The translations under genes and the position numbers were made by a program. 22,760 bases of DNA from Candidatus Thorarchaeota archaeon (GTDB lineage Archaea; Asgardarchaeota; Thorarchaeia; Thorarchaeales; Thorarchaeaceae). Each line of letters starts with the position of its first letter. Within the stretch, counting starts at the first letter, position 1. The notes beneath the pieces are model-generated. The model made no database searches, was not told where the DNA came from, and saw only the letters and a list, made by a program, of their open reading frames with translations. This document shows positions 3,164 to 22,760 of this stretch, piece by piece. The stretch lies in NCBI GenBank assembly GCA_038893995.1, contig JAWAQK010000041.1:1-22760 (forward strand), given 5' to 3'.

Positions 3164-3203
3164 TATGAGCGCACTGAGGGACGGGAAGATTCTCTAGAGG
3201 GGA

Positions 3204-3311: not shown

Positions 3312-3603
3312 GGACACACCTCGGACAATCCTAGGGCATATCTGAAGAAAAGGATGCCTGGACATCATACATGTCATCATAATCATCGTAATGCCAATTG
3401 CAATCCTTCGAGCACTGCTGCTGGTTCAGATGACGTTAACACAACCTCCAACACGACCAGTGGAGCAATGATGCACAAAAAGGTAATATTGTGTTCCAAT
3501 ACTCCACCGACCGTACGTCACGACCAGAGTACAGTGTGGCAGACCAATACTCATGGCCTGACAGGGGACCGATCTCTTGAGCGACAACGACGGCAGCGGG
3601 GAA

Positions 3604-4422: not shown

Positions 4423-4716
4423 CCTGAACTGGCCAGACGATGGAGATGTGTCAGTCTCAGCATCCAGTGACGACGAAAGTCACGGTGGACGCAGCCCTGT
4501 TGTGCAGGGCCGCAGGACATGGTCCGTGGTCGTCAGACTACAGTGATCAGTCCAGACGACGGAGTAGTTCCATGTGGTGGATATCAGTGGGCCTCTGCAC
4601 CAATCAAGCAGGGTTATTAGACAGCCCCCAATTGGAGCACCAAGATGTATGAGAGCAGCTCGTCGAGTATACGAGCTTCACGATACCAGAATAGTCAAGG
4701 AGTGTGAACTGCCTGG

Positions 4717-6810: not shown

Positions 6811-6876
6811 GATGACGGGCCCAGACACACTCTCTACGTCACCGGAGCGTCATCAGATAACGGACGGTTGCTGAGC

Positions 6877-8151: not shown

Positions 8152-8153
8152 GC

Positions 8154-9323
8154 CTAGGTGACTCTACCGTCGACCAGACCTTTGATGAGATCCACGTATC
8201 TTCGGGCCTCGTGTCTCATCGTCAACGCTCCACGCCGGACTGAGTCAAGTACCTCATTTCGATGCTCTACGAGCATCTGAAATCTTTCCGAGTATTCACA
8301 ACAGCTGGGGAGATTGTTGACCCACTGAGAACCATCCCCGACGTGGACCAAGTAGTCTTGAAGACCTAGCCGGCCCGCCAGATCACGAGACTTGTGATGA
8401 TAGACTATGGGCTGTACTAACTTGCCCAGCATGGATGCTATCACGAGTGAATGGAACCGGGTACCAATCACCACGTCTGCTGCTGAGAACGCCCTGACTG
8501 TCTGAATTGGAGACATCAGAGGTAACTCGGTGATCCTCGCACTGTCTGCAAGTTCCGCGACCCTGTGCTGAAACAGAGCATCACTTCGATGTAAAGGCAG
8601 CAACCATACACGCGTGGATGCAGACAGCCACCGGGCAAACTTCGCCAGCTCCTCAACATACACATCGTAGAGTTCCGTCCCCTGGAAAAATGGCACCATG
8701 TTCATGACCACCATGTTCCTGGCGCCGACGGCCCACGAGCTCAGTTCCTGCAGATAGTACACGAGATCGGGAAGAATGTGTATCTTGCCTGTCACTCCGA
8801 CCGTTTCCAACAGGTATCTCGAAGAGGTCAAGTCCCTGACTACAATGAGGTCAATGTAGTTGTTGAGGATCTCTCTTATGGTGCGGACAATCTTCCCATC
8901 GAAGAAGGGGCCCGCACCGATACCCAGTAGCACCGTTGTCTTCCCAAGCCGCCTGGCAGCCCTCATCACACGAAGCCATCTGTCAACCCTGCTGCCCTCC
9001 CAGTCGGAGAGGATACCCCCTCCCCCCATCACTATCAGGTCCGAGTCGAGCAGTCGTCTGGCCGTCCTGAGCAGCCCAGGATGGACCACGTTCTGCACAG
9101 AGACCGAACCGGGCCACCTCGTGAATCTGACATGCGACGCGGCAGGCATGTCCTGGAACACACTCCGAGTGACAGGGGATGACACAGTCGCAACAACTAC
9201 TTGGGAGTGTAGAGCATCATACATGATCTGGGCGGCAGCACGCGACAGAAGTTCATCACCGACGTTACCGTGGCCATAGAAGCCCAGGACGAACGATCTC
9301 AACCCATGTTCGCTCCACGACAT
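8154..9323 (-). CDS. Polysaccharide pyruvyl transferase family protein (CsaB/WcaK-like)
   Basis: GFYGHGNVGDE, MGGGGILSD, GIGAGP, VRD..S, PDL, GTRFHS, Y..K motifs. Confidence 0.9.
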   Translation of the reverse strand: MSWSEHGLRSFVLGFYGHGNVGDELLSRAAAQIMYDALHSQVVVATVSSPVTRSVFQDMPAASHVRFTRWPGSVSVQNVVHPGLLRTARRLLDSDLIVMGGGGILSDWEGSRVDRWLRVMRAARRLGKTTVLLGIGAGPFFDGKIVRTIREILNNYIDLIVVRDLTSSRYLLETVGVTGKIHILPDLVYYLQELSSWAVGARNMVVMNMVPFFQGTELYDVYVEELAKFARWLSASTRVWLLPLHRSDALFQHRVAELADSARITELPLMSPIQTVRAFSAADVVIGTRFHSLVIASMLGKLVQPIVYHHKSRDLAGRLGLQDYLVHVGDGSQWVNNLPSCCEYSERFQMLVEHRNEVLDSVRRGALTMRHEARRYVDLIKGLVDGRVT

Positions 9324-9429
9324 TCTACTGACTTTCTATTACTCAGTGTTGGGCGTGCTCACGGACGAGACCTGTTTCGGCGGTATGGAAACTGAATTCC
9401 AACGAGGGAAACGACACCTTGGTGCAACG

Positions 9430-9473
9430 CCTGTCGATTTACTTAAAGACTTTCTCTTTAAGTAGTCAACAGG
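9430..9473. repeat. 44-bp imperfect inverted repeat containing TTTAAGTA on both strands
   Basis: CCTGTCGATT-TACTTAAAGA-ctttc-TCTTTAAGTA-GTCAACAGG; perfect 10-bp inner arms. Confidence 0.7.
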
Positions 9474-9742
9474 AGACGCTCGTCTTGTGCCAAGACAACG
9501 AGACCTCCTCTACGCGTATCCAGGTGTCAGCGACGATCACTGAGAGGATCTCCCAACGATTTGAGCCGGTACACCAGTATCTCATGGGGGTCCTGAGTCA
9601 CAAGATCGTCAGATTCGTCGTGGTCGTCCAGATTTCCTCAAGCCCTTCATGAGGTGGCAGCACAGCCGGCGGTTCTATGAGAGTCGACAAGAAATGGGCG
9701 ACCATGAGCCCTGTCTTGTCGAGAATCACCGTGAACTTAGCG

Positions 9743-9774
9743 GTTTGAATCAGACTAGAAGTAGGGGTGGGTAC
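9743..9774 (+). repeat. Solitary degenerate CRISPR-repeat-like sequence
   Basis: GTTTGAATCAGACTAGAAGTAGGGGTGGGTAC resembles recalled 30-nt euryarchaeal repeats (GTTGAAATCAGAC...GGGATTGAAAG class). Single copy; the cognate array is not in the window. Confidence 0.3.
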
Positions 9775-9793
9775 AGATGTAGTCTTGATGCAG

Positions 9794-11419
9794 CTACCTG
9801 ATACAGTCCAACCACAGTCCTATCTGTTCGTCGGGACAGTTCCACTCATGTCTGTCTTCGTCCCAGAGTTCAAAGGGAATTATCCAACGGTCTTGCATCA
9901 CATCTCCGATGAGTCCTCCGGATACACCTGGATGGAGGCCCTCGATGGTCCTCATCAGTCCGTAACCTCCGCCGCATGGAAGGCCACACATCATGATCAT
10001 TGAGTCATCAATGTCGAACGCAACGATGGACCTCGGCAGTCTGATCGCCCACGCCGCAAGAGACTCGCCGGCGGACGGTTCATGGGAGAGGACGAATGCA
10101 TTTTCCACCAGTCCGACGTTATGCAGTTCCACTATTGTGCCTAACACTCCAAGTTTCCTCAGTCGCTTCAGTTTCGAGGCCACCTTCTCCTGACCGACTC
10201 TGAGTTCAGACCTGATGGTGCTGACCGACTGTCTACCGCTATGGACCATCCTGGCGATGACCATGTCGAGACCGTCGAGATCACGGACAAGCTCCTCCTT
10301 CTGGACATAGAACTTGGGCATGGCAGATGCAAGGCCGTCCCTGTGTATCCTCTCAAGTTCGGTCTTGACAATGCTCCAGGGAATGTTCCAGACCCCACGA
10401 TCAGGATCGTAATACTCGAGGCTGAAGTTGGCTCCGGAAGACATGACCTCCGAGTGTTCAACTGAGATTCCCCTCTTTCTTATCTCTCTCTCGAAGGTGT
10501 TGAGTGCACGTATGCTATCGTGATTGTCAGGTATGGACAGTGTGACGAGCAGTCTCCATCGTCCAGTGATGATGTTCCTCATGGAGTAGACGAAGGGACA
10601 GTGGTCGAACAGGCGAGTGAGGTTCTCGTTGGGATCCTCGCTGTCCATCAGTAGATTGAACATCCTTATTCCGATCTTGCTGAAGCGGACCGTCGTCCAC
10701 TGTCGGAGTACGTTTTTCTTCCTCAGATAGGAGATCCTCTCTGACACCCACTGGTATGTGAAGCCTGTACGCCTCGCGAGTTGTTTCTTTGGTATCATTG
10801 GTTCGTTCAGCAGGACCCTCAGCATCCTCACATCCGCAGCCGTGAGCGTGGTCACAAAGAGACGATACCTTCTCTCACAGTATCGTACATAGTCCTCAAA
10901 GTCGAGTGATAGTCCATGTCGCGACATGTGTTCGATCTCGTTCACGATCTCCCACAGACCTCTTCCATCTGTCAGGTCGTGGAGCGTGGTGAAGAAGCGC
11001 GCCGGACTGTAGCGGGTCACACGGTCAACGTACTTGTCCCTGACACACTCCCGCCAGAATGCAGCAATCCGTTCCTGGTCCTTCGTATCAAGTAAGGAAT
11101 ATGCCAGCGCCATGCCCAGGTCATCCACAGCCTCGCGGCAGACCTTGTCGGACATGACAGACCCGACGCACTCTCTACATACCACTGTGAAGATCCGACA
11201 TGGGTTTCCAACGATGTCTGCATCAAGAATGAGTGTGGAGCCGTCCAATCTTCCTCCAAGACCGAGGTCATTGCCACCCTCCACAAGCTTGACCTGAACG
11301 GGAGACGACGCGGGAGCCCGTCGGCTATTTTCCCTTAGCACGGCAGATACGGCCGCCCAGTACTCACGTACCAGAACAGTGACGTCAGTGTTCGTGTCAG
11401 CGTCAGTCACTTGGACCAT
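9794..11419 (-). CDS. 541-aa protein: uncharacterised N-terminal domain plus two Lrp/AsnC-like (wHTH + RAM-like) units
   Basis: HTH1 LTAADVRMLRVL...KKQLARRTGFTYQWVSERISYLRKKNVL...FSKIGI; HTH2 LDGLDMVIARMV...VSTIRSELRVGQEKVASKLKRLRKLGVL...NVGL. Start set at ATG 11419 after GAGGAGG, overlapping the csa3 stop. Confidence 0.8.
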   Translation of the reverse strand: MVQVTDADTNTDVTVLVREYWAAVSAVLRENSRRAPASSPVQVKLVEGGNDLGLGGRLDGSTLILDADIVGNPCRIFTVVCRECVGSVMSDKVCREAVDDLGMALAYSLLDTKDQERIAAFWRECVRDKYVDRVTRYSPARFFTTLHDLTDGRGLWEIVNEIEHMSRHGLSLDFEDYVRYCERRYRLFVTTLTAADVRMLRVLLNEPMIPKKQLARRTGFTYQWVSERISYLRKKNVLRQWTTVRFSKIGIRMFNLLMDSEDPNENLTRLFDHCPFVYSMRNIITGRWRLLVTLSIPDNHDSIRALNTFEREIRKRGISVEHSEVMSSGANFSLEYYDPDRGVWNIPWSIVKTELERIHRDGLASAMPKFYVQKEELVRDLDGLDMVIARMVHSGRQSVSTIRSELRVGQEKVASKLKRLRKLGVLGTIVELHNVGLVENAFVLSHEPSAGESLAAWAIRLPRSIVAFDIDDSMIMMCGLPCGGGYGLMRTIEGLHPGVSGGLIGDVMQDRWIIPFELWDEDRHEWNCPDEQIGLWLDCIR

Positions 11420-12066
11420 GCTCTCATCCTCCTCGCCTTCTTCAGCTGCAACACGGTCTCTCCCAGCTGGGTGATCTCTATGGAGTGTCTTCCCCTCTCC
11501 CGGCTGACCCTGACATAGCCCTCCCTCTCCAGTTGCTTGATGTGTTTGGATATAGAGGATGTACCCAGATCTACCAGCCTGCACAGGTCCCTCTGCTTCT
11601 TCACACTGCCCCCCGATCTAGTCAGCGTCTCCAGGATCTTGGCCTTGACAGGGGTCAGAGTGCGAGGAGAGAGAGGCTTCACCTCTACCAGATTCTTCAC
11701 GATCTGCCCCTCCTCCTCCGTGATGAAACAGACAGGTGCACCGATCAGGATTGAGGCCATGTGACAGGCGGCTCTCATGGCCGTCGTGCCACATGATATG
11801 TTAAATATGACATCGTATCCCGGGTGGTCGATCACGACCTTCAGCACGCTGCTGAGTATGGCCTCGTAGTCCCAGGGTTCGACAAGGATCTGTTCAATTG
11901 GGAACCCCAGTCTGGAGTGACGTCCAGATATCTCAGCTACATCTTCCAGGTTGTTCTGGGTACAGACCAGGACGAGCTTGTTTGCGCCCTTCTCCACAAG
12001 CACACGATCTACTCTCTGGTTCGCATGAAGTCCCAGTGTGGCGATCTGCAGTACCTTGTTTGGCAT
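11407..12066 (-). CDS. csa3: CARF + winged-HTH transcriptional regulator (Csa3/DUF6293-like)
   Basis: N-terminal Rossmann-like QIATLG..., VIFNISCGTTAM (CARF-type N-x-S-G-G-like motif); C-terminal wHTH LTPVKAKIL...QRDLCRLVDLGTSSISKHIKQLEREGYV...ITQLG; adjacent to the cas operon. Start ATG 12066. Confidence 0.75.
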   Translation of the reverse strand: MPNKVLQIATLGLHANQRVDRVLVEKGANKLVLVCTQNNLEDVAEISGRHSRLGFPIEQILVEPWDYEAILSSVLKVVIDHPGYDVIFNISCGTTAMRAACHMASILIGAPVCFITEEEGQIVKNLVEVKPLSPRTLTPVKAKILETLTRSGGSVKKQRDLCRLVDLGTSSISKHIKQLEREGYVRVSRERGRHSIEITQLGETVLQLKKARRMRAWSK

Positions 12067-12104
12067 CTGAACGCGTCCAGGGTTGTAACATCCCTCTTTC
12101 AAAT

Positions 12105-12124
12105 GTTTCCATCCTGATTTCAAC
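12105..12124 (-). repeat. Internally deleted CRISPR-repeat-like 20-mer
   Basis: GTTGAAATCAGGATGGAAAC: repeat-like 5' end (GTTGAAATCAG) joined directly to a canonical 3' handle (ATGGAAAC). Confidence 0.4.
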
Positions 12125-12189
12125 TAGTCATCAAGAGTCCAACACGACTCCTGGATGACAAGTTGGGGGGTTCTGTGTTACACGTGTTC

Positions 12190-12213
12190 GCGTCACCGTA
12201 GTCCCGGTGACGC
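12190..12213 (-). terminator. Perfect 9-bp GC-rich hairpin at the end of the cas effector operon
   Basis: GCGTCACCG-tagtcc-CGGTGACGC (+ strand), 8 nt beyond the stop at 12222; role inferred from position. Confidence 0.55.
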
Positions 12214-12221
12214 ACTGATGG

Positions 12222-12521
12222 TCACACTCCATCCTCCTGAAGACCCAGAATGGCCATGGTAGTCTTGGCCCAATTCTGGAACTGGCCTCTAAGGTCGTCT
12301 AGTTCAGTCATGAGGGAGCGCATCTCCTCCGGTGTTGGGCCCCCACCCCTGCGTCGGAGCAAGAGATGCACTCCCCGTCTTTTTTTCACTATTTCTGTAG
12401 TCTGGCAGTCCAGATCAAGTATTGCTGCGAGTCGCGAGGCTGCCGTTCCTGATTCAGATGCCGACAACAGGTCGATACATTTTCGATCGGTCACTTCAAC
12501 AACCCCTCCTGTCAGTGACAT
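12222..12521 (-). CDS. Hypothetical ~99-aa protein, last gene of the cas operon
   Basis: Start overlaps the csa1 stop; same strand; amphipathic C-terminal helix; followed by a hairpin. No family recognised. Confidence 0.55.
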   Translation of the reverse strand: MSLTGGVVEVTDRKCIDLLSASESGTAASRLAAILDLDCQTTEIVKKRRGVHLLLRRRGGGPTPEEMRSLMTELDDLRGQFQNWAKTTMAILGLQEDGV

Positions 12522-13462
12522 TCGCTCCAGTATGGACAGTCCTCGTAGCAGACTCGCGGCAGGCCTGGATCCCTCTGGTCGTAGATCAGCTTCATGGCCT
12601 GGTCTCTGAGCTCCAAGAACTCCTGTCGAAGTGTTTCATCTATCTGATGTACATCATACTCGATCTGAGGAGGAATCGGTTTCTTGAACCAGCAGTAGAC
12701 TACGCATCCCACGTCGACAGGGTACTCATGTATGCTCTCGATCACCATAGCATAGCCCGTCGTCGACAGCCTGTGAAAGTATCTCTTTTCCCCTGTCTTG
12801 ATATCTAGTACGACACCCTCGATACCGTACGCATCAGCGCTGAGGTGGCCGCTCAGGCCCAGGTTTCTCCCATCCAGTCTCTGCTCTACCACTATTGGTA
12901 GGACCGTGTTCACTAGTGCGTCAAGCCCAATATGGGGCTGCATCGTGAGTACCTGGTCTGTCTTTGCTACTAGCAAGTTGACCTCGTAGTCCCAGAGCCA
13001 TGACATGTTGGTCCTCACTTTTGCAGGGTCCCACACACCTCCTCTGTCGGTGACCTCTGGAGGCCTGACGGTCGATAGCAGGTCGTCGATGATCTCGTCT
13101 CTAATCTCAGCCATCCTTGTGCCGAGTTCCTGGGCCGAGACCCGTCCCATGCCATACAGCTCCCTCTTTCCATGGTAGACCACAGACGCGACTGTGGCGT
13201 GATAGAGTCCTCCCTCGATCATCTTCGCATTGGTCGGCCTTCTCTTCCCCTCGACGTACCTGAGGTACAGGTCTCTCATCGATTCACAGTATCGACTGAC
13301 AAGTTCGCTGAGGGAGAGCTGGTAATCGTAGGGCGGGTCTATCGGCGGAACCTCCCATGACCAGCCCCTGAACCTCTCGTCGACGACTATCTCTCGAGAA
13401 CGACGACGATGTCTCCTCAACAGGCGACGCTTTATCTCATCCGGTAGGATGTACAGTTTCAC
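12512..13462 (-). CDS. csa1: CRISPR-associated Cas4-family nuclease Csa1 (Cas4a, type I-A-like)
   Basis: FRGWSWEVPPIDPP, LSLSELVSRYC...RDLYLRYV, EQRLDGRNLGLS..LSADA, DIKTG, HRL..TGYA...ES....PVDVG, C-terminal C-x3-C-x5-C. Start GTG 13462 after a G-rich SD. Confidence 0.9.
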   Translation of the reverse strand: MKLYILPDEIKRRLLRRHRRRSREIVVDERFRGWSWEVPPIDPPYDYQLSLSELVSRYCESMRDLYLRYVEGKRRPTNAKMIEGGLYHATVASVVYHGKRELYGMGRVSAQELGTRMAEIRDEIIDDLLSTVRPPEVTDRGGVWDPAKVRTNMSWLWDYEVNLLVAKTDQVLTMQPHIGLDALVNTVLPIVVEQRLDGRNLGLSGHLSADAYGIEGVVLDIKTGEKRYFHRLSTTGYAMVIESIHEYPVDVGCVVYCWFKKPIPPQIEYDVHQIDETLRQEFLELRDQAMKLIYDQRDPGLPRVCYEDCPYWSECH

Positions 13463-14285
13463 GCTCCCCCCTTGTGAAACCCGTTTCAAGTCTGACCTCG
13501 ACCTGACCAAATCCTGCAGTCCTGTTCTTGCCCACATTGCTCAGCTCTGCGAACTTGGCGAGCCCTGCGGTCATCATGCCAAGAGGAGACGTTGCATTTC
13601 TGAGCGTATACACAACCCGACCCAAGAATCCGACAATGCTTCTCTCACGACCCAGATCCACCTCTGCCGTCCGGAGGTTGTAGGCCGATACATGGACATT
13701 CTTTTCGACCCAGTCCCTGTAGTCCGACACATGTTCGATGGCAGTCTTCCCCTCAATCTGGTTCCAGACTCTCAGCAACGATGTGAACACGCGCTCGGGT
13801 GACGGGAGAAGACAGGCATAGTCCGAGCCATAGGCCGACAGCTGAGTCGGGGTGATAAACGACATCACTATCCTGACAGTGTCGTCAAAGGTGTTCCTGA
13901 ACTCCTCTATCCATGAGTCCATCATCATTGCAGTCTCATAGGAACTGAAGTCGATTCTCCTGAGATGAAACACTTCATGGTGGACTCTGAGTGACCTGCC
14001 CGCCCTGAGCGCAAACTGCCGTATCGCATCACGATAGCGGTCCGAGTCCAACAGATTCACCCTGAAATAGTAGATCTGCCCCTGGAGAAAGGTCGTTGTG
14101 AAGTCCCTGCCGCAGGGGAAAGGCTGTAGGGCATACGTACGTATCCCTCTCTCGTCGTGGACGCGACCGCTGAGTTGTTCGTCACACTCCCTGAGCAGAC
14201 TCAGGAACGCAGCCCTGAGAGGTGGTCCGGTGAACCCAAACTGGCCCGTGAATGAGCTCTCCACCTCGAACCGCAACTCAATCAT
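13437..14285 (-). CDS. cas6: CRISPR precrRNA endoribonuclease Cas6
   Basis: FITPT, LPSPE.VF.SL...W, GF.G, C-terminal Gly-loop NVGKNRTAGFG; ATG 14285 overlaps the cas3 stop, with a GGAGG SD. Confidence 0.93.
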   Translation of the reverse strand: MIELRFEVESSFTGQFGFTGPPLRAAFLSLLRECDEQLSGRVHDERGIRTYALQPFPCGRDFTTTFLQGQIYYFRVNLLDSDRYRDAIRQFALRAGRSLRVHHEVFHLRRIDFSSYETAMMMDSWIEEFRNTFDDTVRIVMSFITPTQLSAYGSDYACLLPSPERVFTSLLRVWNQIEGKTAIEHVSDYRDWVEKNVHVSAYNLRTAEVDLGRERSIVGFLGRVVYTLRNATSPLGMMTAGLAKFAELSNVGKNRTAGFGQVEVRLETGFTRGERETVHPTG

Positions 14286-16365
14286 GTCTAGTGTCCTCCA
14301 TACGCTGTTTCTCGCAGAGATAGTGGGCAACAATTGCCCAATCACCAATTACGAGTGCTCCACCCCCGTCCTCACAGTAGAGCCTTGGAATTCGAAAGTC
14401 TGTTCCTCTCCGCAACGAGTTCCACAGGAAGACCAGGTTTCTGCCCTCTAGGAGATCGTTGATGACATCTGTCATCAGCCGATCGTGGCACTTGATTGTC
14501 GTTTCACTCCTGTTGAACAGACTGACGTTATGCCGTGCCCGGGCGTCAGCAGCAGCGCTAACCCTGGGCAATGGTGACCTCCGGAAGTCGCGGACCACGA
14601 AGACCGGATCGTCTACAGAATACTTCATCTGGAGTTGCCTCGGGATGGTCTGCCAGTGCCTCTCAGCCCGTTCTAGCTTGCCCTCCATCTTGAATACGTC
14701 AAAGATATCTGCCTCAGCTACAACTTCCCCCTGAGGTGCACCGACCAACCATCCGGGATACATGACTAGGACGTTGTTTATAGATCCTCGGAGAAGACCG
14801 TTCGTGGCCAGTGCACTGACGGTCCTCTTGTTGAGTTCGCTCCTGACCAGCACGTCATCAAGTCCGCCTATCACGTCGATGAGTTGCTTCTGCCCCATGC
14901 TGATCTTTCCGTTTGCCTTGACTAGCCTCTTGAAGTACTCACATGCCTCAGCCACGTTGTATTCTGTCCGCTTATGGTAGATGTCGTGTTCCCTTGACGC
15001 GGCAAGCGCCATTGCCAAGAGTATAGTCCTGACGTGGCGGCTGCAGACAAAGTCTGCGTATGATGGCATGTCTCGAAATGCCTCCTTTGCCTGGTCAATG
15101 AAGTCCGGATACGACCACTCTTCCGACCTCCCTAGTCGCAGCGTCATGGTGTCGGGGACGTAGAGCACACAATCACACGGCCCATGCCGGCCACCCCTTC
15201 CGAAACGCTGGAGGAATGATGCCAGATCATGGGCCTCCATCACGAGCCGTGGTACGTCAAAGTCCACGCCGACCTCTATTGACGAGGTCCCAATCAGGAT
15301 AGCGTTAGAGAGCCTCTCGATGCTTGGCCTGGCCGATCTGGGAATCAGACCATGATTCTGCACGACGATACTATCTGCATCCAGCCCCCTATCACTCAGG
15401 ATATCCTTGACTCTCCGAGCGACCGAGATTGCAAACATGACCGAGGAGAATATCGCCAGTACCTTTACGTGATAGTCTTTCCCTGGTGGTCCTGGAGTCT
15501 CATACAGGCGAAGGATATCGCCGGCAACCTCATCCAGTCGATCGTCCTCGACCAGTACGGTCGACTGCGTCCTCAGTTCCACTCTGCATTCATGTCGTAT
15601 CTGCCTCAGACTAGGTCCGTCCTCTGGCAGCGGAGTGGCCCTGATGATGTCCGCCTCAGGGTAAGTGTTCTTGAGCAGGTCAATCACATCACCGTGCGTT
15701 GCACTCAGGAACACAAGGTCCACCTGTGGCGAGGGCGAGCTGTAGAAATCGTTGAGCATGAACATGAGTCTGGCCAGGGTAGGACCGGCGTAGAGATGAA
15801 ACTCATCCACGACGATCGTCTGGAACTTGAAGAGCTGATCGCTTATCAGGCCAGACCTGGCATACATTCCGGCATTCACCATATACAGGGTGTCCGGATT
15901 GGTGAGCAGGATCCTCAGTCTGCCCCTCTTGTCCGTTGCAGTGAGGATCCTCTCCAATGCCGTCCCCTTGGCGTGGTCACCGGCAATTCTCTCCAGGCTG
16001 TCTCCGGTCGCAAGTATCAGATCGACTGCCCTGTCGTCAGAGCGTATCACGCTCCCAGGATCCCAGGACTCGCTGATACAGTTGGGCGCATACCCTATCA
16101 TTTCAAGGAGTCTGGCTATGCTGTTGAACTGATCCTCCACGAGCGCATTGGTCGGGTAGATGAATACGGCAGGCCTCTGATGCTCGACGACGCGAGCAAG
16201 AGCGGCAAGCGTCTTGCCTGAGCCTGTCGGTGCGTCAAGCACCACCACTCTGCTCTTAGACTCGATCGTCTTCAGCTGATGCTCGCTCAGTTCTACTTCT
16301 CCTCTCTTGACCCCGGTCTGTGGTATGTATGCGCCTCCAACTCTCACCGGCCTGCCCTCTGCCAA
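14278..16365 (-). CDS. cas3: Type I-D Cas3' helicase (no HD domain)
   Basis: APTGSGKT, YPTNALVEDQ, TNPD, DEFH, SAT, GTSSIEVGVDF, QRFGRGGR SF2 motifs; the HD nuclease is on Cas10d. Confidence 0.95.
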   Translation of the reverse strand: MAEGRPVRVGGAYIPQTGVKRGEVELSEHQLKTIESKSRVVVLDAPTGSGKTLAALARVVEHQRPAVFIYPTNALVEDQFNSIARLLEMIGYAPNCISESWDPGSVIRSDDRAVDLILATGDSLERIAGDHAKGTALERILTATDKRGRLRILLTNPDTLYMVNAGMYARSGLISDQLFKFQTIVVDEFHLYAGPTLARLMFMLNDFYSSPSPQVDLVFLSATHGDVIDLLKNTYPEADIIRATPLPEDGPSLRQIRHECRVELRTQSTVLVEDDRLDEVAGDILRLYETPGPPGKDYHVKVLAIFSSVMFAISVARRVKDILSDRGLDADSIVVQNHGLIPRSARPSIERLSNAILIGTSSIEVGVDFDVPRLVMEAHDLASFLQRFGRGGRHGPCDCVLYVPDTMTLRLGRSEEWSYPDFIDQAKEAFRDMPSYADFVCSRHVRTILLAMALAASREHDIYHKRTEYNVAEACEYFKRLVKANGKISMGQKQLIDVIGGLDDVLVRSELNKRTVSALATNGLLRGSINNVLVMYPGWLVGAPQGEVVAEADIFDVFKMEGKLERAERHWQTIPRQLQMKYSVDDPVFVVRDFRRSPLPRVSAAADARARHNVSLFNRSETTIKCHDRLMTDVINDLLEGRNLVFLWNSLRRGTDFRIPRLYCEDGGGALVIGDWAIVAHYLCEKQRMEDTRHD

Positions 16366-17145
16366 TCACCCCGCCTCCGTATCCCACACGGCACGATACA
16401 CGTCTGCCTTAGGCAAGGGGATCTTGTGCGCGAGGCCCTGTGTGTCCCTGCACTCCAGATACGGCCCATCGAGCTCTGCAGCAACGAGCACGGGCGCAGG
16501 AGGTATTGTGAGGAGACTGCCAGACCGAATGGAGGTATTCTCAGGAAGGTCCACCACATTCACAGGGCAGGTCGGATGAAAGACGCCCTCTCTCCTTGTG
16601 GCCTCCAGAGGATATGCACTCAGCCGGGCAGGGATAAACTTCTTCCCCACCCGAATGATGCTTGGTATGGGACCCCCAATTGCATAGAAGTAGAGCATTG
16701 TCAGTGGTGGATATCGATAGTATGCCCCCAGTTTTGGCAGATTGATGTTGTCCTGCGTCATCTTGTCGAGCAGAGTCTCACCGATGCTGTTCCAGGTGAT
16801 ACGCAGGGGCAGACCCCCACTCCAGGGAACAGCCACCGTACCACAGAGCGGTGCCTGCCTGTTGACCCAGCTCTTTCCCCCTCCTACTAGGTAGTCTGGA
16901 AAGTCGTTGATCATTGCCGCGGGAGTGGCGTAGACCGACATTCTGCCCAGGTCATCACAGTAGTGTGGCTTGACTTCTGATACGATCCTTCGCACCTCAG
17001 GAACATGTCGGTTCAGTGCATACATGAGGGCGTAGTTGCCGACTATCTCGGATGGACGCGCAACAGCGCCGTAGTCCTGGCTGGCGTAGTATAGGTAGTC
17101 GTGGCAAGTCATCAGGACGAGGTTGACGACCGGGTCCTTTGACAT
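16366..17145 (-). CDS. cas5: Type I-D Cas5 (Csc1)
   Basis: HDYLYYAS, VGNYALMYAL, VYATPA, PSIIRVGKK, PVNVVDLP motifs. Start 17145 after GAGGTGA (17154/17157 possible). Confidence 0.9.
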   Translation of the reverse strand: MSKDPVVNLVLMTCHDYLYYASQDYGAVARPSEIVGNYALMYALNRHVPEVRRIVSEVKPHYCDDLGRMSVYATPAAMINDFPDYLVGGGKSWVNRQAPLCGTVAVPWSGGLPLRITWNSIGETLLDKMTQDNINLPKLGAYYRYPPLTMLYFYAIGGPIPSIIRVGKKFIPARLSAYPLEATRREGVFHPTCPVNVVDLPENTSIRSGSLLTIPPAPVLVAAELDGPYLECRDTQGLAHKIPLPKADVYRAVWDTEAG

Positions 17146-17153
17146 CGGTGTCA

Positions 17154-18107
17154 TCACCTCTGTTTCTTCTTGGCCCCGGACTTCTCTGAAGTGGCTATGG
17201 CTACGAACTCATCAACCTGCTTCTGCATCGCCTCGACAAAGCCCTTGTCAAGATTCAGATCCTGCACATCTGCCAATAGTTTCTTGCTCTCCTCAGCAGA
17301 CAGGACTACTAGGTTGTTTCTTGAGGCACTCAGCTTCGAGTAACGTTTCAGTATCTCCTCCGTAGCAGCCTCTAGGTCCAGCTTCTCGTCCCACAATGCC
17401 GCCATCTCGAGACTGTATTCGAGCGAGGTGATGATCTCCTCATAACCTGCTGCGATGCCCAGGACCAGGTTACGCACGTCTCCCTTGGTACGGGTCTCAG
17501 CGCCGTATGACTTGCATGCAAGGAGGGTCTTCAGGTAGAGGGCCAGTTCTTGCCAGGTGACCGAGGTCAGAGTGACTACAGATGGGAAGTTTGCAAGGGG
17601 CCTGACATTGTGTGTCAGGTTCAATGCCTGACCCGTCATCTGTGTGTTCTCCTCCACCGCGTTGAATGTTATGGACTCAAGAAGGTCTTCGTAGGGCTCT
17701 ATTGAGAACGCCGTGGAGTACTCTATTCTGTGCTTGATGTTGTAGTCTGTTCCTTTTACGGACACGCTACCGAAGAGCGCACAGCGGGGACATTTCATGC
17801 AGAGTCTGTCCTTTAGACTGCAGTCGTACTCATGGACCGTTCTCAGAAGTCGCGAAAACATCCTTGACTCCGGAGCCTTCTGCTTCGATGCAAGAAACGC
17901 CACTTTCACGGTCGGCTTCGTTGACCTGATGCTCTCAGGCACCACAACAGTGTTCAGTTCGCGGCTCTCTTCTGTCCGAAGTATCGTGTAGTCGTGCGTC
18001 TGTCTGAGCAAGAGTACCTGGACTACACGTGCGTCAAGCAATGGTGAGATCTTGTCGACTAGGTACGGTTCCAGTTTCTTGAAGCTGATTGGGATCTTTG
18101 CTGACAT
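17154..18107 (-). CDS. cas7: Type I-D Cas7 (Csc2)
   Basis: LRQTHDY...RTE, SKQKAPE.R, Zn-finger C...C.KCPRCALFG, RIEYSTAFS, TFNA, F.SVVTL, YGAETR..G motifs. Confidence 0.95.
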   Translation of the reverse strand: MSAKIPISFKKLEPYLVDKISPLLDARVVQVLLLRQTHDYTILRTEESRELNTVVVPESIRSTKPTVKVAFLASKQKAPESRMFSRLLRTVHEYDCSLKDRLCMKCPRCALFGSVSVKGTDYNIKHRIEYSTAFSIEPYEDLLESITFNAVEENTQMTGQALNLTHNVRPLANFPSVVTLTSVTWQELALYLKTLLACKSYGAETRTKGDVRNLVLGIAAGYEEIITSLEYSLEMAALWDEKLDLEAATEEILKRYSKLSASRNNLVVLSAEESKKLLADVQDLNLDKGFVEAMQKQVDEFVAIATSEKSGAKKKQR

Positions 18108-18716
18108 CTACTCTTTCGCCTCCTTCTTCTTCTTTCTCTGTTCCCAGAACTCCTTGACCAATTCCTGAAGGCCCGAGGGCACGGACCAGGGATCAGGAAC
18201 CTCCTCGAACGAGCCGTACTGCTCTACCTCCGCAAGTTCGTTGACTCTCTCGATTGTACCAAACTTACCCTTTAGCCACTCTTGGAACTCTCTCTGCACG
18301 AAGGCTCTCTGGCCGACTACCTTGTCTCGATATGCTCTGAAGAACACCTCGTCATCGAGGTCCTCTACTGTTCTGAGCCATTTCGTTGGTGGGAGTAGAC
18401 TCCTCAAGTGCTGGAGGTGCCTCACCGCCTCGTCAAGTGCCTCCGCGGCGGTCGCAGGTACAGCTCCGGCCTGCTGGTTCTTCTGGACATTCAGGACGTA
18501 TCCCTTCACGGCCTCCCAGTTGATGTCACCTGTTGTAGTGAGCCGTGTGAGCAACTTGCCCACAGGACCCATGAGTGAATGCTTTGAGTCACTCTGAGGT
18601 CCCTCTGGCCTGAATGTCTTGAGATACTTGACCAGTGCCTCTGCGGCCTCAGATCTGGTCTTTACTACTTCCTTGATGTCGAACTTCTCTTCTTCTCTAC
18701 TCATTCGGATTGCCAT
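18108..18716 (-). CDS. cas11: Stand-alone Cas11 (small subunit) with C-terminal extension
   Basis: Lies between cas10d and cas7; helical; SKHSLMGPV resembles the Cas10d C-terminal/Cas11d region; own SD GAGGTGATC before ATG 18716 (202 aa). Confidence 0.7.
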   Translation of the reverse strand: MAIRMSREEEKFDIKEVVKTRSEAAEALVKYLKTFRPEGPQSDSKHSLMGPVGKLLTRLTTTGDINWEAVKGYVLNVQKNQQAGAVPATAAEALDEAVRHLQHLRSLLPPTKWLRTVEDLDDEVFFRAYRDKVVGQRAFVQREFQEWLKGKFGTIERVNELAEVEQYGSFEEVPDPWSVPSGLQELVKEFWEQRKKKKEAKE

Positions 18717-18732
18717 CTGATCACCTCTATCT

Positions 18733-21420
18733 TCATGTTGTATGATCTTCACGTATGCTTGGTAGCACCTCGAGGAGGGCTACCAGGCGCGACTTCTCAG
18801 CATGGCTGAGTCTTGACCAATCCTCATGTTCAGAACGTCTGAGGACTGCGCCCCTGCTCATGCTGGCGAGTCGGAGCATGCTGTCCTTTCCGAGTCCCTT
18901 TACGTAACTCATCGAGATCAGCTGTAGTGCTGCCAGGTTGCGGAGGGCGGTCCTGAGCTCATGCAGTTGTGGTTCTGTTGAGACGTCAAGTTGCGCGAGT
19001 GCTCTCTCTGCAGGGGGAGGTATCTGCACTCGGACTATGCCCTCCATCGAGAGGTCTGTGATGGGTTCGAAACCCTCCGTCACAATCACTCTTGCGTAGA
19101 ACACCTTCGCGATGATGAGGGCGAGAAGATACATGCGAAGAGTGCTCGTGCTGTGTGACTCCTCGTCATCCAGACGGGGTAGCTCTCTGAAGAAGACAAA
19201 CATGTGGCTAGGGGTCAAACATGCAGTGCCCTGGGTCCTTGTGGGACCCTTGTAGTCAGCCAGAATCCCCTCCTTGATCATCACGAGCCCCCTGATGTGT
19301 GCCCTGGCAAGGTCTTCCATGTTCCTTATCTGCGGGGACGGCGTGACAAGCACATCATAAGGGACCCTACTGAAGTCCCCCCAGTCCTCAAGGAACTTTA
19401 CGAGTCTACTGACATTATCATTAGATGGCCTCAGGGCCCTTGCTAGCTCAATGGCATTGTCGAGCGGTCTGTCATGAGCCAACCGATTGTAGACCTCCGA
19501 CATGTTCCACATGGACGCCATTGAGTTGCCCAGCCGTTCGGTGCGCACCAGTGCCTCCACACCAGCTGCCCATTGCCTTGCCAGGTCGGGACTCAGGTAG
19601 ATGTCTGGAATGACTATGAATGTTGCAGCAGGAGCGGAGGGGAAGTAGAATGCACGGAATGTGGACTCCAGTCTGCAGAGGGGACATACTTGAGCCTTGT
19701 ATCCCTTTCCTATCCTTGCCCCGGCCTTGAGCAGGTTTGAGAACCGCTGTGATCCATCACCAAAGAGGGTGGCCGGCGCATCATCTTCTGCGATTGCTCC
19801 ACAGAAGCTACAGACTCTCTGAGTCTGGTCCTTCCCCTTCAGATACCTCTGAAATGTGTCATTGGCGACCCTCTTCAGACTTTCGGACGTAGACATACGG
19901 ACTGGGAGGTGCTCGATGTCCGCGAGCAGAAGTACTACTGTCTCATGGGTGAAGATGTCTGGCATAGAGCCCGAGAACGCTAGCAGGATTTCCCTCAGTA
20001 CTTGGATGAACCTCTGTTCGAGCACACCCCTTCTGTCGCTCTTGAGATGCAGATTGTTACGACCCACGTCCCAGAGCCTTGCTACAGTATCGACCTGATC
20101 GATCTTAGTTTCTGACGCCTTCCTAGCTATCGGAGTCGTATGCGAGATTCCGCTCAGCTCATCGAGTGTGAAGGAGAGCCCATTCTTGCTCAGAATGTCA
20201 TTCATCCTCTGTACAGGATTCTGTCCTTGGCTCCCGTTCCTGGCGTATTCACCGTACGTCTTGATCAGGTCCGCAACGTACACGAAGAGATAGAAGTCTC
20301 CGACCATCTTCGCCAGAATGCTCGCATCCGTATCAGGACTACCACCTGAGCCGCAGCTCCTCAGGAAGTCCCGTATGCGCTGTATCTGGTCTGGGTCTAG
20401 CTTCCCGTCTTTCGCGTCCAGAATCTCCCCGACGTCCTTTGCCTCCTTATTCATGGCCGGCATCGAAGAGAGATGCCGTACTATTTGCGGGATGTCATCA
20501 GCACGGATCAGCTGGGGACAGGGCCACTTGGTCTGTGTGAACGGTCCTATGACTGCGTTTAGCAGCCCGAGTCTATACTCCTCTGACGACTGGAAAAGCG
20601 CTATCTGCCTCCTGATGGCGGCTTCAAGCAATGTCTGCGCATCGTCAATCTGTTTCGGCTCCCCGACACACACGTAGGCGACTCCCCTCGGGAAATAGGC
20701 TATAGGGATGTAGCCTGCACTCCTCATGACATCAATTATTGCCTCATTCAGGAAGCTTGTGATCAGCCCTCGTATCGTCGTGATCTCGTGGTACTCGAAT
20801 GAGACATTGGTTCCCTGTGGAAGTGCGAGATCATGCTTCTTTCCAACGATGTCCTTTGGTTCCTTCATGCTCGCAATGCTGTCAGCCATTCTCACCAGTG
20901 GGACTAGTTCATCAGCAGCTCCGACCTGATTTCGTCGTTTCGAGGACACAGCAGGACTCTCAGTGTCGTGTGTGTATACGACCATGTTCAGTAGCCTTGG
21001 AAGGTGTGGGACAATCCTCTCACTGGCACCCTGTGCATTGATCTTCGCCTCAATCTCCCTCAGGAGTTCTTCGAGTTTCTGCCCCTGTTCTTCAGAGCCA
21101 TCATCGTGGTCGAATGTGCCGTCGGGCGGTCTTTCGCCACGCAGGAACGAAATGGCTGCGTCTTGCCATCTCCTCTCGGCCTTCTGGTAGTCGTGCAGAA
21201 ACGCGCCAAGACATCCGAGTACTAGATCGTCGCCAGACAGGCCATAGATACTTGCACCCAACTCTTTTGCGATAGAGAATGCATTCACGGAGTGGACCAG
21301 TAGAGACTGTTTGTTCTTGGAGGAGAACTTTGCGTAGCAGTATCCCCAGCCTCGCTCTATCGAGACCGAGAGCAGGGCCTGCAGCAGTTGATTCAGTCTC
21401 TGATCTAGATCCTCGCTCAT
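18733..21420 (-). CDS. cas10d: Type I-D large subunit Cas10d (Csc3) with N-terminal HD nuclease
   Basis: QSLLVHSVN...FLHDYQK HD domain, ADSIAS, YHE....RG..T..LN, Zn finger CSFCG...CPLC..E; no GGDD; 895 aa. Confidence 0.92.
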   Translation of the reverse strand: MSEDLDQRLNQLLQALLSVSIERGWGYCYAKFSSKNKQSLLVHSVNAFSIAKELGASIYGLSGDDLVLGCLGAFLHDYQKAERRWQDAAISFLRGERPPDGTFDHDDGSEEQGQKLEELLREIEAKINAQGASERIVPHLPRLLNMVVYTHDTESPAVSSKRRNQVGAADELVPLVRMADSIASMKEPKDIVGKKHDLALPQGTNVSFEYHEITTIRGLITSFLNEAIIDVMRSAGYIPIAYFPRGVAYVCVGEPKQIDDAQTLLEAAIRRQIALFQSSEEYRLGLLNAVIGPFTQTKWPCPQLIRADDIPQIVRHLSSMPAMNKEAKDVGEILDAKDGKLDPDQIQRIRDFLRSCGSGGSPDTDASILAKMVGDFYLFVYVADLIKTYGEYARNGSQGQNPVQRMNDILSKNGLSFTLDELSGISHTTPIARKASETKIDQVDTVARLWDVGRNNLHLKSDRRGVLEQRFIQVLREILLAFSGSMPDIFTHETVVLLLADIEHLPVRMSTSESLKRVANDTFQRYLKGKDQTQRVCSFCGAIAEDDAPATLFGDGSQRFSNLLKAGARIGKGYKAQVCPLCRLESTFRAFYFPSAPAATFIVIPDIYLSPDLARQWAAGVEALVRTERLGNSMASMWNMSEVYNRLAHDRPLDNAIELARALRPSNDNVSRLVKFLEDWGDFSRVPYDVLVTPSPQIRNMEDLARAHIRGLVMIKEGILADYKGPTRTQGTACLTPSHMFVFFRELPRLDDEESHSTSTLRMYLLALIIAKVFYARVIVTEGFEPITDLSMEGIVRVQIPPPAERALAQLDVSTEPQLHELRTALRNLAALQLISMSYVKGLGKDSMLRLASMSRGAVLRRSEHEDWSRLSHAEKSRLVALLEVLPSIREDHTT

Positions 21421-21474
21421 TGCCAGAATTCTTCCTTGAGTATGATTTCTGGTTCAATCAGTCCCGTGTGATAG

Positions 21475-21482
21475 ATATAAAA
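21475..21482 (-). promoter_or_regulatory. Putative TATA box of the cas10d operon
   Basis: TTTTATAT on the minus strand, ~55 nt upstream of the cas10d ATG; AAGGAAG SD-like site before the start. Confidence 0.6.
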
Positions 21483-21495
21483 CATCGGCAAGCAA

Positions 21496-21533
21496 GTTTC
21501 AGCCAGGAATGCCACTTTCTGGCTGTTTCGAAC
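21496..21533 (-). repeat. 38-nt palindromic element upstream of the cas10d promoter (operator or solitary CRISPR repeat)
   Basis: GTTCGAAACAGCCAGAAAGTGGCATTCCTGGCTGAAAC, with CAGCCAG/CTGGCTG arms. Confidence 0.5.
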
Positions 21534-21607
21534 AGAGTGTGGCCGACTCCATGTTGTCCCCAGTATGAGGATTAAACTCAGAATGGGCGCTCGATTGACT
21601 CGGCATA

Positions 21608-22246
21608 CTATGAGGTCTGACACTGATCTGCAAATCCACAACCTGCCTTACCCCGAGAACACTGTCTTCTGTGAGGGGGAACTGTTCCTGACTCCACCAT
21701 TCGCCAGATCGAACTGATCATTTTCTCCGTCCTCTTCTTGAGACTATGTGAGATGTTGACGATCACCGAGGTTTCGTCGTCGAGGTAGTGAACGATCCCT
21801 CTGCGTACGATTGTGTTGTCTACCTCTTCAACGAGTATTGCCAGTACGGCAATCTGGTACTTGTGATCCAGATGCACCTGTCCCCGGTTGCTCCGCATTG
21901 CCTTGAATTCTACAGGGATGCGTTCCCCGCTCGTCGTGATTACGAGCATGTCGACCCTGCCCAGTGTTCCTAGCCGATCCGAGATCAGTAGCCGGTCGAA
22001 TTGTTTTGCAGAGATGTCGAAAGGGAACCTAGACTTCAATAGTGACTGTCGTCTGCCCTCTAGGTCTGCAATCTTCTCATGGACCTTTCTGGCCTCCTCC
22101 TGCTGGGAACCCACTATGGGTCTCAGTCGCATCACCCTAGTGAAGTAGGTGACCATCGGACAGAACATGTACTGCTTCACGTCTGTCACACTCAGGTATT
22201 CATCCTCGATGTCTGTGGTCCTAGAATACTCTGACTCTCTCGCCAA
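21608..22246 (-). CDS. cas4: CRISPR-associated exonuclease Cas4
   Basis: LSVTDVKQYMFCP...YF, GRVDML...PVEFK, three C-terminal Cys; TTG 22246 after GGAGGG, overlapping the end of cas2. Confidence 0.92.
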   Translation of the reverse strand: MARESEYSRTTDIEDEYLSVTDVKQYMFCPMVTYFTRVMRLRPIVGSQQEEARKVHEKIADLEGRRQSLLKSRFPFDISAKQFDRLLISDRLGTLGRVDMLVITTSGERIPVEFKAMRSNRGQVHLDHKYQIAVLAILVEEVDNTIVRRGIVHYLDDETSVIVNISHSLKKRTEKMISSIWRMVESGTVPPHRRQCSRGKAGCGFADQCQTS

Positions 22247-22511
22247 TGCCCTCCATCTCCTTCTCGGCCCCAATGACGATCCTGCCTCTGAAGCAGGGGT
22301 CACATAGTGGGAAGATTATGACCGAGTCTGTCTCATCCCCCTCATTGACCAGTTTCTGCAGGTCGGTCCTGAGCGAACTCAGCACGTGACGCAGTAGTTC
22401 TCCCTGAAACGTGCTGTACTGTATTCTCTCCAGACCGTAGTCCTTGAGACGCTCACTGACTCTCTCCCTGAGTGAGTCATCCGTGATGTCATATACGACT
22501 ATCCAGCGCAC
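22221..22511 (-). CDS. cas2: CRISPR-associated Cas2
   Basis: IVVYDITDD..R.RV...LKDYGLERIQYSTF.GEL, PLC..C; GTG 22511 after GGTGAGG. Confidence 0.95.
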   Translation of the reverse strand: MRWIVVYDITDDSLRERVSERLKDYGLERIQYSTFQGELLRHVLSSLRTDLQKLVNEGDETDSVIIFPLCDPCFRGRIVIGAEKEMEGIGERVRVF

Positions 22512-22516
22512 TGTCC

Positions 22517-22760
22517 TCACCACCGAAGATAGAACGGTTCGTAACGGGCTGATTCTCCACACAGGAACCTCGCGATAGACCAGGCCTGTCTGACGATGAC
22601 GTTTCTCAGCTCGACTTTGGACTCTCGAACCTGGACCCGCTCAGAGAGTCTGTTCACAACTCTGGATGCCACAGCCTCACGTGTAGATTTCGAGAGCATG
22701 TCTGGTTGAACATCGGTCTCGATCTTCAGTTCCTTACCAGTCAGGGAGTGTACCAGCACC
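22517..22760 (-). CDS. cas1: CRISPR-associated Cas1, C-terminal fragment (5' part outside the window)
   Basis: C-terminal I..QA..IARFL.G....Y.PF..RW motif directly upstream of cas2. Confidence 0.88.
   Translation of the reverse strand, partial: VLVHSLTGKELKIETDVQPDMLSKSTREAVASRVVNRLSERVQVRESKVELRNVIVRQAWSIARFLCGESARYEPFYLRW

Follow-up and report, generated by a model that had tools for sequence, protein, structure and literature searches.

A type I-D CRISPR-Cas cassette of Asgard archaea with a stand-alone Cas11d, csa1 and a putative regulatory tail

Introduction

The 22,760-nucleotide (nt) contig JAWAQK010000041.1 of a Candidatus Thorarchaeota archaeon (assembly GCA_038893995.1), analysed over its whole length and referred to here as the window, carries a type I-D CRISPR-Cas cassette that includes csa1 and ends in a pair of genes for putative regulators. 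An original prediction made from the sequence described this locus as a recombinant of I-D and I-A modules with a regulatory extension of its own. Does the cassette indeed combine parts of two subtypes, or is it the usual form of type I-D in a group of Asgard archaea, and what is the extension at its end? We regard it as probable that the locus is a standard I-D cassette of one Asgard (Thorarchaeota-type) group, with an attached regulatory tail and with its arrays in trans.

The reference systems for type I-D are those of Synechocystis PCC 6803 and Sulfolobus islandicus LAL14/1 (7SBA, 6YES; PMC9123187, PMC7544194, PMC10212523). In the I-D systems that have been studied, the small subunit is translated from within cas10d, an arrangement that reviews describe as widely conserved (PMC10212523, PMC7544194, bioRxiv 10.1101/2020.04.18.045682). 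Csa3a and Csa3b are transcription factors of Sulfolobales that combine a CARF domain with a winged helix-turn-helix (wHTH) domain (PMC8699464, PMC7515695, PMC4390879), and csa1 and CARF-wHTH regulators already appear in the Sulfolobales literature as general archaeal parts for adaptation and regulation (PMC4390879).

The window is the whole of one contig (C41) of a 91%-complete metagenome-assembled genome of 2.33 Mb in 82 contigs. A sister assembly (GCA_038825165.1) contains a contig of 33,970 bp that is 99.74% identical across the full window and reaches past both of its ends. Homologues and syntenic records carry the labels Thorarchaeota, Lokiarchaeota or Promethearchaeota, all of which denote Asgard archaea. 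The Asgard host that had been suspected is supported by the records of relatives, which are titled Promethearchaeota, and by homologues named Thorarchaeota or Lokiarchaeota.

Results

Components and subtype of the cassette

From position 22760 down to 9794, the minus strand encodes cas1 (cut), cas2, cas4, cas10d, cas11d, csc2, csc1, cas3', cas6 and csa1, followed after a gap by a CARF-wHTH gene and a gene for a protein of 541 amino acids (aa). The features of the cas portion are as follows.

22517–22759, minus strand: cas1, last 80 codons, the contig end cutting the gene; 100% identical to residues 261–340 of Cas1 in the sister assembly, where the protein is complete (340 aa); weak C-terminal match to TIGR00287
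22221–22520, minus strand: cas2, with a GTG start (read from the sequence) overlapping the cas1 stop; TIGR01573 58.6 bits, PF09827 E 2e-17
21608–22189, minus strand: cas4, start uncertain (22189–22303); TIGR00372 79 bits (cut-off 65), PADLOC Cas4 E 2e-22
21421–21607, minus strand: 187-nt gap with a TATA-like TTTTATATC, read from the sequence; a gap of similar size is present in all syntenic loci
18733–21420, minus strand: cas10d, 895 aa, large subunit with an HD domain at its N-terminus; PADLOC Cas10d E 1e-17, TIGR03174 E 3e-13
18108–18716, minus strand: cas11d, stand-alone small subunit, ~200 aa; PADLOC PDLC01194 Cas11d ('CAS-I-D effector_SS') E 5e-21 over profile positions 7–196 of 202
17154–18107, minus strand: csc2 (cas7d); PF18320 E 2e-43, TIGR03157 123.5 bits
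16366–17145, minus strand: csc1 (cas5d); TIGR03159 68.4 bits (cut-off 41.4)
14278–16365, minus strand: cas3' helicase of I-D type; TIGR03158 146.6 bits (cut-off 69.1)
13437–14285, minus strand: cas6; PF10040 E 5e-18, matches to PADLOC Cas6 and Cas6d
12512–13462, minus strand: csa1, a Cas4-family nuclease gene with a 26-nt overlap with cas6; PF06023 E 7e-74, TIGR01896 212.5 bits

Cas2, Cas4 and Csa1 each pass their curated cut-offs, as do Csc2, Csc1 and the separate I-D-type Cas3'. Cas10d scored 48.6 bits against TIGR03174, under the cut-off of 60. A profile built from ten Cas10d orthologues matched Synechocystis Cas10d (7sba_I) at E 5e-9, the HD region included, in an alignment that spans the N-terminal third only. 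Cas10d carries the N-terminal HD (Cas3'') domain expected of an I-D large subunit, with the HD motif LHDYQK as well as CxxC...CxxC visible in its translation. Given that the curated cut-offs are passed and that Cas10d is recognised both by PADLOC profiles and by the profile search against 7sba, the I-D assignment is firm, and typing with hidden Markov models bears out the predicted effector set of HD-Cas10d, Csc2, Csc1, Cas3' and Cas6. The tight packing that had been noted also holds, in that genes abut or overlap, but with two exceptions: a gap of 187 nt ahead of cas10d and one of 445 nt that separates the CARF gene from csa1. To judge from the sequence, the former is the probable promoter of the effector operon; a motif search in this cas4–cas10d gap yielded nothing exceeding shuffled controls.

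HD-Cas10d, Csc2 (Cas7d), Csc1 (Cas5d), a separate Cas3', Cas6 and the adaptation set cas1-cas2-cas4 are common to this cassette and the I-D systems of Synechocystis and S. islandicus, and a linked transcription regulator is shared with S. islandicus, where it is Csa3. In contrast to these references, the Asgard cassette has csa1 after cas6, its regulator is a CARF3-type protein coupled to the 541-aa partner and a micro-open reading frame (micro-ORF), and it lacks an adjacent array. The variant is set apart by its stand-alone Cas11d, by csa1 and by the attached three-part regulatory module.

Conservation of gene order and the affiliation of csa1

The complete 12-gene order is also found in the loci L008/L009, L010, L011, L012, L013, L016, L051 and L080, which represent at least eight other species-level Asgard genomes. 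Two partial contigs (L056 and L067) likewise show this order, and a further locus (L007) is a truncated copy of the cassette that ends after cas3'. Identities of the proteins of the syntenic loci to those of the window range from ~30% for the 541-aa protein to 77% for Csc2. Csc2 is encoded in 15 of the 86 genomes of the taxonomic family of the host, ten of them with the architecture of the cassette and five with a second one. This second I-D architecture (L108, L109, L111) consists of an array, two tandem 541-aa-like genes (470–506 aa), cas10d-csc2-csc1-cas3'-cas6 and a convergent cas1-cas2-cas4 set; csa1, the CARF gene and a separate cas11d are absent from it. A third architecture (L115), which comes from an unrelated metagenome (JGI 3300005099), comprises a divergent 516-aa member of the 541-aa family (E 8e-45 to the family profile), cas6, an 834-aa cas10d, a 145-aa Cas11d homologue (E 1e-22 to the Cas11d family profile), csc2, csc1, cas3', csa1, cas1, cas2 and cas4. 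A 66-aa glycine-rich ORF adjoins the 516-aa family member at the latter locus.

Csa1 is a clear member of its family, with 249 bits for PF06023 (cut-off 27) and a TIGR01896 score well past the cut-off of 103. Its orthologues, at 61–78% identity, hold the same position in the syntenic loci, and relatives at ~43% identity were located in three further contexts: an I-D cassette of different build, a cas2-cas4-csa1 set linked to III-B, and a separate type I locus. Csa1 was found only once in the host genome. A match was also present in S. acidocaldarius, which is listed as possessing I-D plus III-D (PMC7694759). The 'I-A' label of csa1 is a naming habit, and Csa1 is not specific to type I-A; the view that csa1 marks an I-A contribution did not hold up against its relatives in I-D, III-B-linked and other type I modules.

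A small subunit encoded by its own gene

The ~200-aa protein encoded directly after cas10d had no match in Pfam or NCBIfam, and PDB sequence searches returned chance matches only. Its homologues form 55 clusters, at 52–68% identity, all from Asgard-labelled or unlabelled metagenomic sources. The three best structural matches of its AlphaFold2 model (predicted local distance difference test, pLDDT, 90) were the Cas11-like C-terminal domains of Cas10d proteins: residues 675–844 of S. islandicus 6yes_B (Z 9.1, root-mean-square deviation 3.1, 117 residues aligned), residues 826–974 of Synechocystis 7sba_I (Z 8.4) and 6THH (Z 8.3). Lower-ranking matches, both at Z 5.7, were to the SsoCsm small subunit and to Cas7-11 in its Cas11 domain. 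In the structural comparison of helical bundles a Z below 13 counts as weak; the identification is nevertheless sound because profile, fold and gene position agree. The protein thus combines a Cas11d profile match with a Cas11-type helical bundle resembling the C-terminal domain of Cas10d, and the separate cas11 that had been predicted is real. Alignment of the Cas11d family with the locus's own Cas10d by hhalign revealed no similarity.

Whereas Cas11d of Synechocystis and S. islandicus is made inside cas10d, the Asgard cassette devotes a gene of its own to it. PADLOC-DB contains a dedicated Cas11d profile, and the stand-alone form is therefore already known to cataloguers. Cas10d measures 883–895 aa in the cassette architecture with cas11d and 886–892 aa in the second architecture without a separate cas11d. 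Some Cas11d orthologues are misnamed 'beta-galactosidase' in public records as a result of a weak PF02449 match to the C-terminal helix, an annotation error.

The putative regulatory tail

The features beyond csa1 that make up the tail are the following.

12218–12262, plus strand: micro-ORF of 14 codons, MVTLHPPEDPEWPW-stop; conserved, also intact in the sister assembly, oriented divergently to the CARF-wHTH gene
12067–12217, no strand assigned: putative divergent control region that separates the CARF-wHTH gene from the micro-ORF, based on a nine-locus alignment
11407–12066, minus strand: CARF-wHTH regulator, Csa3-like, CARF3 clade, 219 aa; PADLOC PDLC01870 CARF3 E 3e-33, HTH_27 E 1e-7
9794–11419, minus strand: 541-aa protein with a zincin fold lacking HExxH (residues 1–189) and tandem Lrp/AsnC wHTH-RAM units (residues 194–541); AlphaFold2 pLDDT 94.9, predicted TM-score 0.90

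The CARF-wHTH protein also matched the CasR and Csa3 profiles of PADLOC (E 1e-14 to 1e-15). It remained below the curated Csa3 thresholds, with 45.9 bits for TIGR01884 (cut-off 60.2) and 17.8 bits for Csa3_N (cut-off 27). We call it Csa3-like because the architecture is shared but the Csa3 thresholds are failed and the best profile is CARF3; of the csa3-type gene in the original prediction, the CARF-wHTH architecture thus stood and the Csa3 membership did not. With Csa3a and Csa3b it has in common an N-terminal CARF Rossmann fold, a C-terminal winged helix and a gene located inside a cas cassette. It differs from them in having many paralogues outside CRISPR loci and in being coupled, as a rule, to the dead-zincin/double-Lrp protein, in a genome in which no Cas10 cyclase was detected.

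The gene for the 541-aa protein overlaps the CARF-wHTH gene by 13 nt. The listed ORF of 596 aa likely starts too early, an ATG at 11419 giving 541 aa. Residues 194–541 of the model form two wHTH-RAM units in a single chain, for which NirDL, a fused tandem Lrp-like protein, was the best match (Z 16.3, 282 residues aligned), and ordinary Lrp/AsnC regulators matched the model with a Foldseek probability of 1.0. The arrangement typical of Lrp/AsnC proteins, a wHTH followed by a ferredoxin-like RAM domain, is thus present at the level of fold twice per chain; no Pfam AsnC or NCBIfam score exceeded its cut-off, with weak matches to MarR_2 and LysM. The overlap and the two units bear out the proposed coupling of a CARF-wHTH gene to a tandem-Lrp gene. 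Residues 5–189 adopt the catalytic fold of thermolysin and M1 aminopeptidases in many concordant matches that cover the entire domain (Z 8.5–9.2), among them thermolysin (Z 9.0, 171 residues aligned) and LTA4 hydrolase (Z 9.2). The HExxH motif that zincin (gluzincin) metallopeptidases carry on the active-site helix was found in none of 56 family members (0/56), in which this helix reads A-R-E-[CA]-[LF], and the modelled N-terminal domain is a pseudo-peptidase. The protein resembles Lrp/AsnC proteins (FFRP) and the fused tandem form NirDL/AhbAB (4CZC, 2DBB, 2CG4) in its wHTH-RAM units, of which one chain contains two, and differs from NirDL and Lrp by the additional 189-residue zincin-fold domain. 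Given that NirDL is an enzyme rather than a regulator, the fold alone is no proof that the 541-aa protein binds DNA. A complex prediction for the CARF-wHTH and 541-aa proteins, both entered as alignments, scored 0.00, which we count neither for nor against binding. No description of the dead-peptidase/double-Lrp family or of its micro-peptide partner was found in the published literature.

Alignment of the csa1-to-CARF intergenic region of nine loci revealed a block with 16 invariant positions in which every third base was variable. The core of the micro-ORF in this block, CCn CCn GAn GAn CCn GAn TGG CCn TGG, encodes PP[DE][DE]P[DE]WPW in 15 loci; a stop follows directly in 11 of the 15, and an ATG lies 11–15 codons before the end in each. 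Third codon positions of the core vary in seven of nine cases, the two invariant ones being those of the Trp codons, and first and second positions vary in four cases each. The peptide motif occurs nowhere else in a six-frame translation of 932 kb, and the DNA motif is present once in the genome, at the site in the window. The micro-ORF always points away from a CARF/541-aa operon, or from a lone 541-aa gene, at a distance of ~130–250 nt; it runs into convergent genes and is therefore not a leader for a downstream gene. Reading the conserved block on the strand of the operon (...YHGHSGSSGG...) was rejected, several loci having no start codon and a stop directly upstream, and the plus-strand reading is preferred because the strand opposite to the operon accounts for every variable position. 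An Rfam scan of 9300–12700 with E values up to 1 gave no family match, and RNAalifold detected no consensus structure in the conserved block, with one row mis-registered.

The control region contains a TATA-like box ~35 nt before the ATG of the CARF gene together with repeated GGAAAC / AGTTG motifs, which are candidate operator sites. Both this gap and the same gap in eight other loci display GGAAAC/GTTTCC-like palindromes and AAGTTGCA-like repeats upstream of the TATA-like box. A AGTTGAAATCAGGATGGAAAC stretch in the control region of the window looks like a CRISPR repeat.

The unknown ORF of ~99 aa that had been proposed nearby (12222–12521, minus strand) was judged to be no gene. It has no family match, a tblastn search against eight syntenic loci found no match in any of them, and an extra A in the sister assembly (12379, in an A7 run) disrupts its frame. 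Of the two uncharacterised linked genes originally postulated, the 541-aa gene is therefore real and the 99-aa ORF is not, and the latter should stay unannotated.

Distribution of the tail

A full HMMER search identified 127 representatives of the 541-aa family, mostly of 520–560 aa, of which a word-index search had found almost none. Strong full-length matches are present in most genomes of the host's family, often two to four per genome, and the CARF/541-aa proteins are among the commonest paired regulators there. We examined the neighbourhoods of 59 family members in 60 loci, a sample biased to the best-scoring matches. A CARF-wHTH gene lies directly up- or downstream of 36 of the 59, and seven of these neighbours match PADLOC CARF3 (best E 3e-110). 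A quick maximum-likelihood tree placed all I-D-linked pairs inside one subclade of 26 members; unlinked copies belong to this subclade too, and no micro-ORF lies outside it.

Family members also stand at cas loci of other build, two in tandem before cas10d in the second I-D architecture and one divergent from cas6-cas10d at L115. In addition, a complete type III-B operon, Cmr1-6, has a CARF-wHTH/541-family pair divergent to it (L065:2974-17831). The CARF/541-aa unit is a mobile, multi-copy regulatory module that in one lineage became fixed at the end of the I-D cassette and in others joined other cas operons. Its linkage to cas genes is recurrent, not exclusive; the proposed regulatory extension is thus borne out in that the unit recurs with cas genes. 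After the Cmr operon at L065 come genes for an SF1 helicase of 977 aa, a wHTH protein and a nuclease of the PLD family.

CRISPR arrays and a dead leader

No CRISPR array is present in the window, and the array normally associated with an I-D system is thus absent at the locus. The expectation that it lies beyond cas1 failed as well, the sister assembly having a peptidase S8 gene 300 nt upstream of cas1. At the opposite end of the cassette, we found a remnant.

9623–9769, plus strand: dead CRISPR leader and a single partial repeat (27 of 31 nt), with no array after it; 83% identity (123/149, E 5e-37) to a 31-nt-repeat array on contig C72, across its leader and first repeat

The dead leader shows the same 83% identity to the leader of the 31-nt-repeat array on C38, and its TATA element has changed from TTTATAA to TTCATGA. 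Its repeat family differs from that flanking the cassette in relatives and on C72 stands beside a different cas1. In two relatives (L058, L080), 37-nt repeats lie directly beside the cassette and are identical at 33 of 37 positions to the B repeat of the host genome, GTTGCAGAAG...ATTGAAAG. This 37-nt repeat occurs on five contig ends of the host genome with differing spacers, and the cassette most likely uses these arrays in trans. Altogether, ten contig ends (C19, C31, C38, C43, C48, C61, C69, C70, C71, C72) carry three repeat families of 31, 37 and 30 nt, and two further full-length cas1 genes are located on C72 and C48.

Remainder of the window

Positions 562–9323 have no relation to the cassette and contain polysaccharide or S-layer glycan genes (for a GT87-like glycosyltransferase, a MOP-type flippase and a pyruvyl transferase). 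At 3207–3303, a short acidic tandem repeat was noted.

Discussion

Three other explanations of the locus were weighed against a standard cassette with attached tail. If I-A ancillary genes (csa1, csa3) had recently been grafted onto an I-D effector in the window genome or its close kin, the name of the Csa1 model would fit, NCBIfam calling it 'type I-A' and public records annotating the orthologues likewise, and module exchange among archaeal CRISPR-Cas systems is documented (PMC4390879). The gene order is fixed, however, although proteins across the loci share only 30–77% identity; the host has a single Csa1, the relatives of which, at ~43% identity, belong to I-D, III-B-linked and other type I modules, and which also has a match in S. 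acidocaldarius, listed as I-D plus III-D; and the CARF gene fails the Csa3 cut-offs. We consider such a graft very improbable. The neighbourhood survey, with the complete order fixed in at least eight other Asgard genomes, did not bear out a recombinant module: the cassette is a lineage-typical Asgard I-D variant and not a local I-A/I-D recombinant, though an ancient exchange of modules may have taken place. Of the two findings that had been named in advance as speaking against the original prediction, a recurring gene order was seen among Asgard archaea, whereas an absence of linkage was not, the extra genes being recurrently linked to cas genes. Another explanation takes the cassette for an orphan in decay that, with its array lost, has ceased to confer immunity on the population of the window. 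An array on neither side, a leader with a mutated TATA element and truncated repeat, and a sister assembly in which loss of the 16 nt at window 20376–20391 shifts the frame and splits cas10d into 347 + 524 aa are all in keeping with decay. On the other hand, all twelve genes are intact in the window, five contig ends hold arrays of the repeat type that flanks the cassette in relatives, with differing spacers, and the dead leader belongs to another repeat family, found beside a different cas1. The 16-nt deletion and the extra A of the sister assembly could represent strain variation or assembly errors. Decay of the cassette therefore appears unlikely to us.

The remaining alternative concerns the tail, in that the micro-ORF and the two genes of the CARF/541-aa operon might constitute an independent housekeeping or mobile regulatory unit that lies beside the cassette without regulating CRISPR-Cas. 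Such independence would accord with the two to four copies per genome, with the unit's own promoter region, 290–450 nt from csa1, and with the neighbours and tree positions of the unlinked copies described below. Every complete cassette of this type nevertheless ends in the unit, members of its family turn up again in two other I-D architectures and next to a III-B operon, and the CARF partner belongs to a class tied to CRISPR signalling (PMC8699464); we give independence a real but minor chance. Several observations weigh against our preferred reading of a standard cassette with a tail of its own. Most sampled copies of the 541-aa family sit among unrelated genes, and the module is therefore not CRISPR-specific. 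At 14 loci without I-D genes, the 25 commonest Pfam and PADLOC families listed for 139 neighbours included no cas effectors; ordinary neighbours there include Ras-like GTPases, ABC transporters and radical SAM enzymes, and the defence-related families among those listed are the CARF partners, two Csx1/Csm6-like genes, a few methyltransferases and a few other PADLOC families (mad, AriA, PDC). The I-D-linked copies do not form one clade but are interleaved with unlinked ones, with four changes of state in the tree, at least two of them forced. A search of the host genome, which is 91% complete, detected no Cas10 palm2 domain, and a source of cyclic oligoadenylate for the CARF domain is therefore not evident. 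The frameshifting deletion in cas10d of the sister assembly means that the cassette may be dispensable. Finally, judging from Cas10d length alone, cas11d is probably an addition to a full-length Cas10d and not a split of it, since the lengths are equal in the two architectures.

With respect to function, homology suggests that Cas6 would cleave pre-crRNA (precursor CRISPR RNA), that Cas10d, the stand-alone Cas11d, Cas7d (Csc2) and Cas5d (Csc1) would assemble as Cascade on the mature crRNA, and that Cascade would recruit the Cas3' helicase, with the target DNA being cut by the HD domain of Cas10d. The equal lengths of Cas10d suggest that Cas11d would be made from its own gene and not solely by internal translation of cas10d. 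Adaptation would proceed via Cas1, Cas2 and Cas4, with Csa1 as a presumed second nuclease of the Cas4 family. The tail would consist of three parts, a gene for a 14-codon peptide being divergent from an operon for the CARF-wHTH protein and a putative DNA-binding protein with a dead zincin domain and two Lrp units. Both proteins of the operon are most likely transcription factors, acting in the proposed scheme on the divergent control region and on cas or CRISPR promoters, and their signal inputs may be the CARF domain and the dead-peptidase or RAM domains. The three-gene tail may control the cassette.

Peptide-receptor cassettes of the RRNPP and arbitrium type, such as Rgg/SHP, PlcR/PapR and AimR/AimP, are familiar from bacteria. 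The Asgard tail resembles them in that a tiny conserved peptide gene adjoins, and is divergent from, the gene for a large HTH regulator with a candidate peptide-binding domain. It differs in that the receptor candidate has no TPR domain, the 14-residue peptide has no signal or export sequence and the host is archaeal; two features of RRNPP-type signalling, an exported and processed peptide and a TPR receptor, are thus not evident in the tail. The peptide, rich in Pro, Asp, Glu and Trp, might serve as the ligand of the dead-zincin domain, and together with the CARF partner might form a peptide-controlled switch that sets CRISPR-Cas expression in Asgard archaea; alternatively, the micro-ORF might act as a ribosome-stalling sensor, given that peptide bonds form poorly at PP[DE] and WPW-stop. 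We put this proposal forward tentatively and consider it rather doubtful.

An I-D lineage that combines full-length Cas10d with a stand-alone Cas11d and is widespread provides a natural test case for the evolution of the small subunit, and offers a simpler gene set for heterologous reconstitution. The peptide switch, if real, would be an archaeal counterpart of the bacterial peptide-receptor cassettes. If the tail does control CRISPR-Cas, it would represent a new input into the immunity of the closest prokaryotic relatives of eukaryotes.

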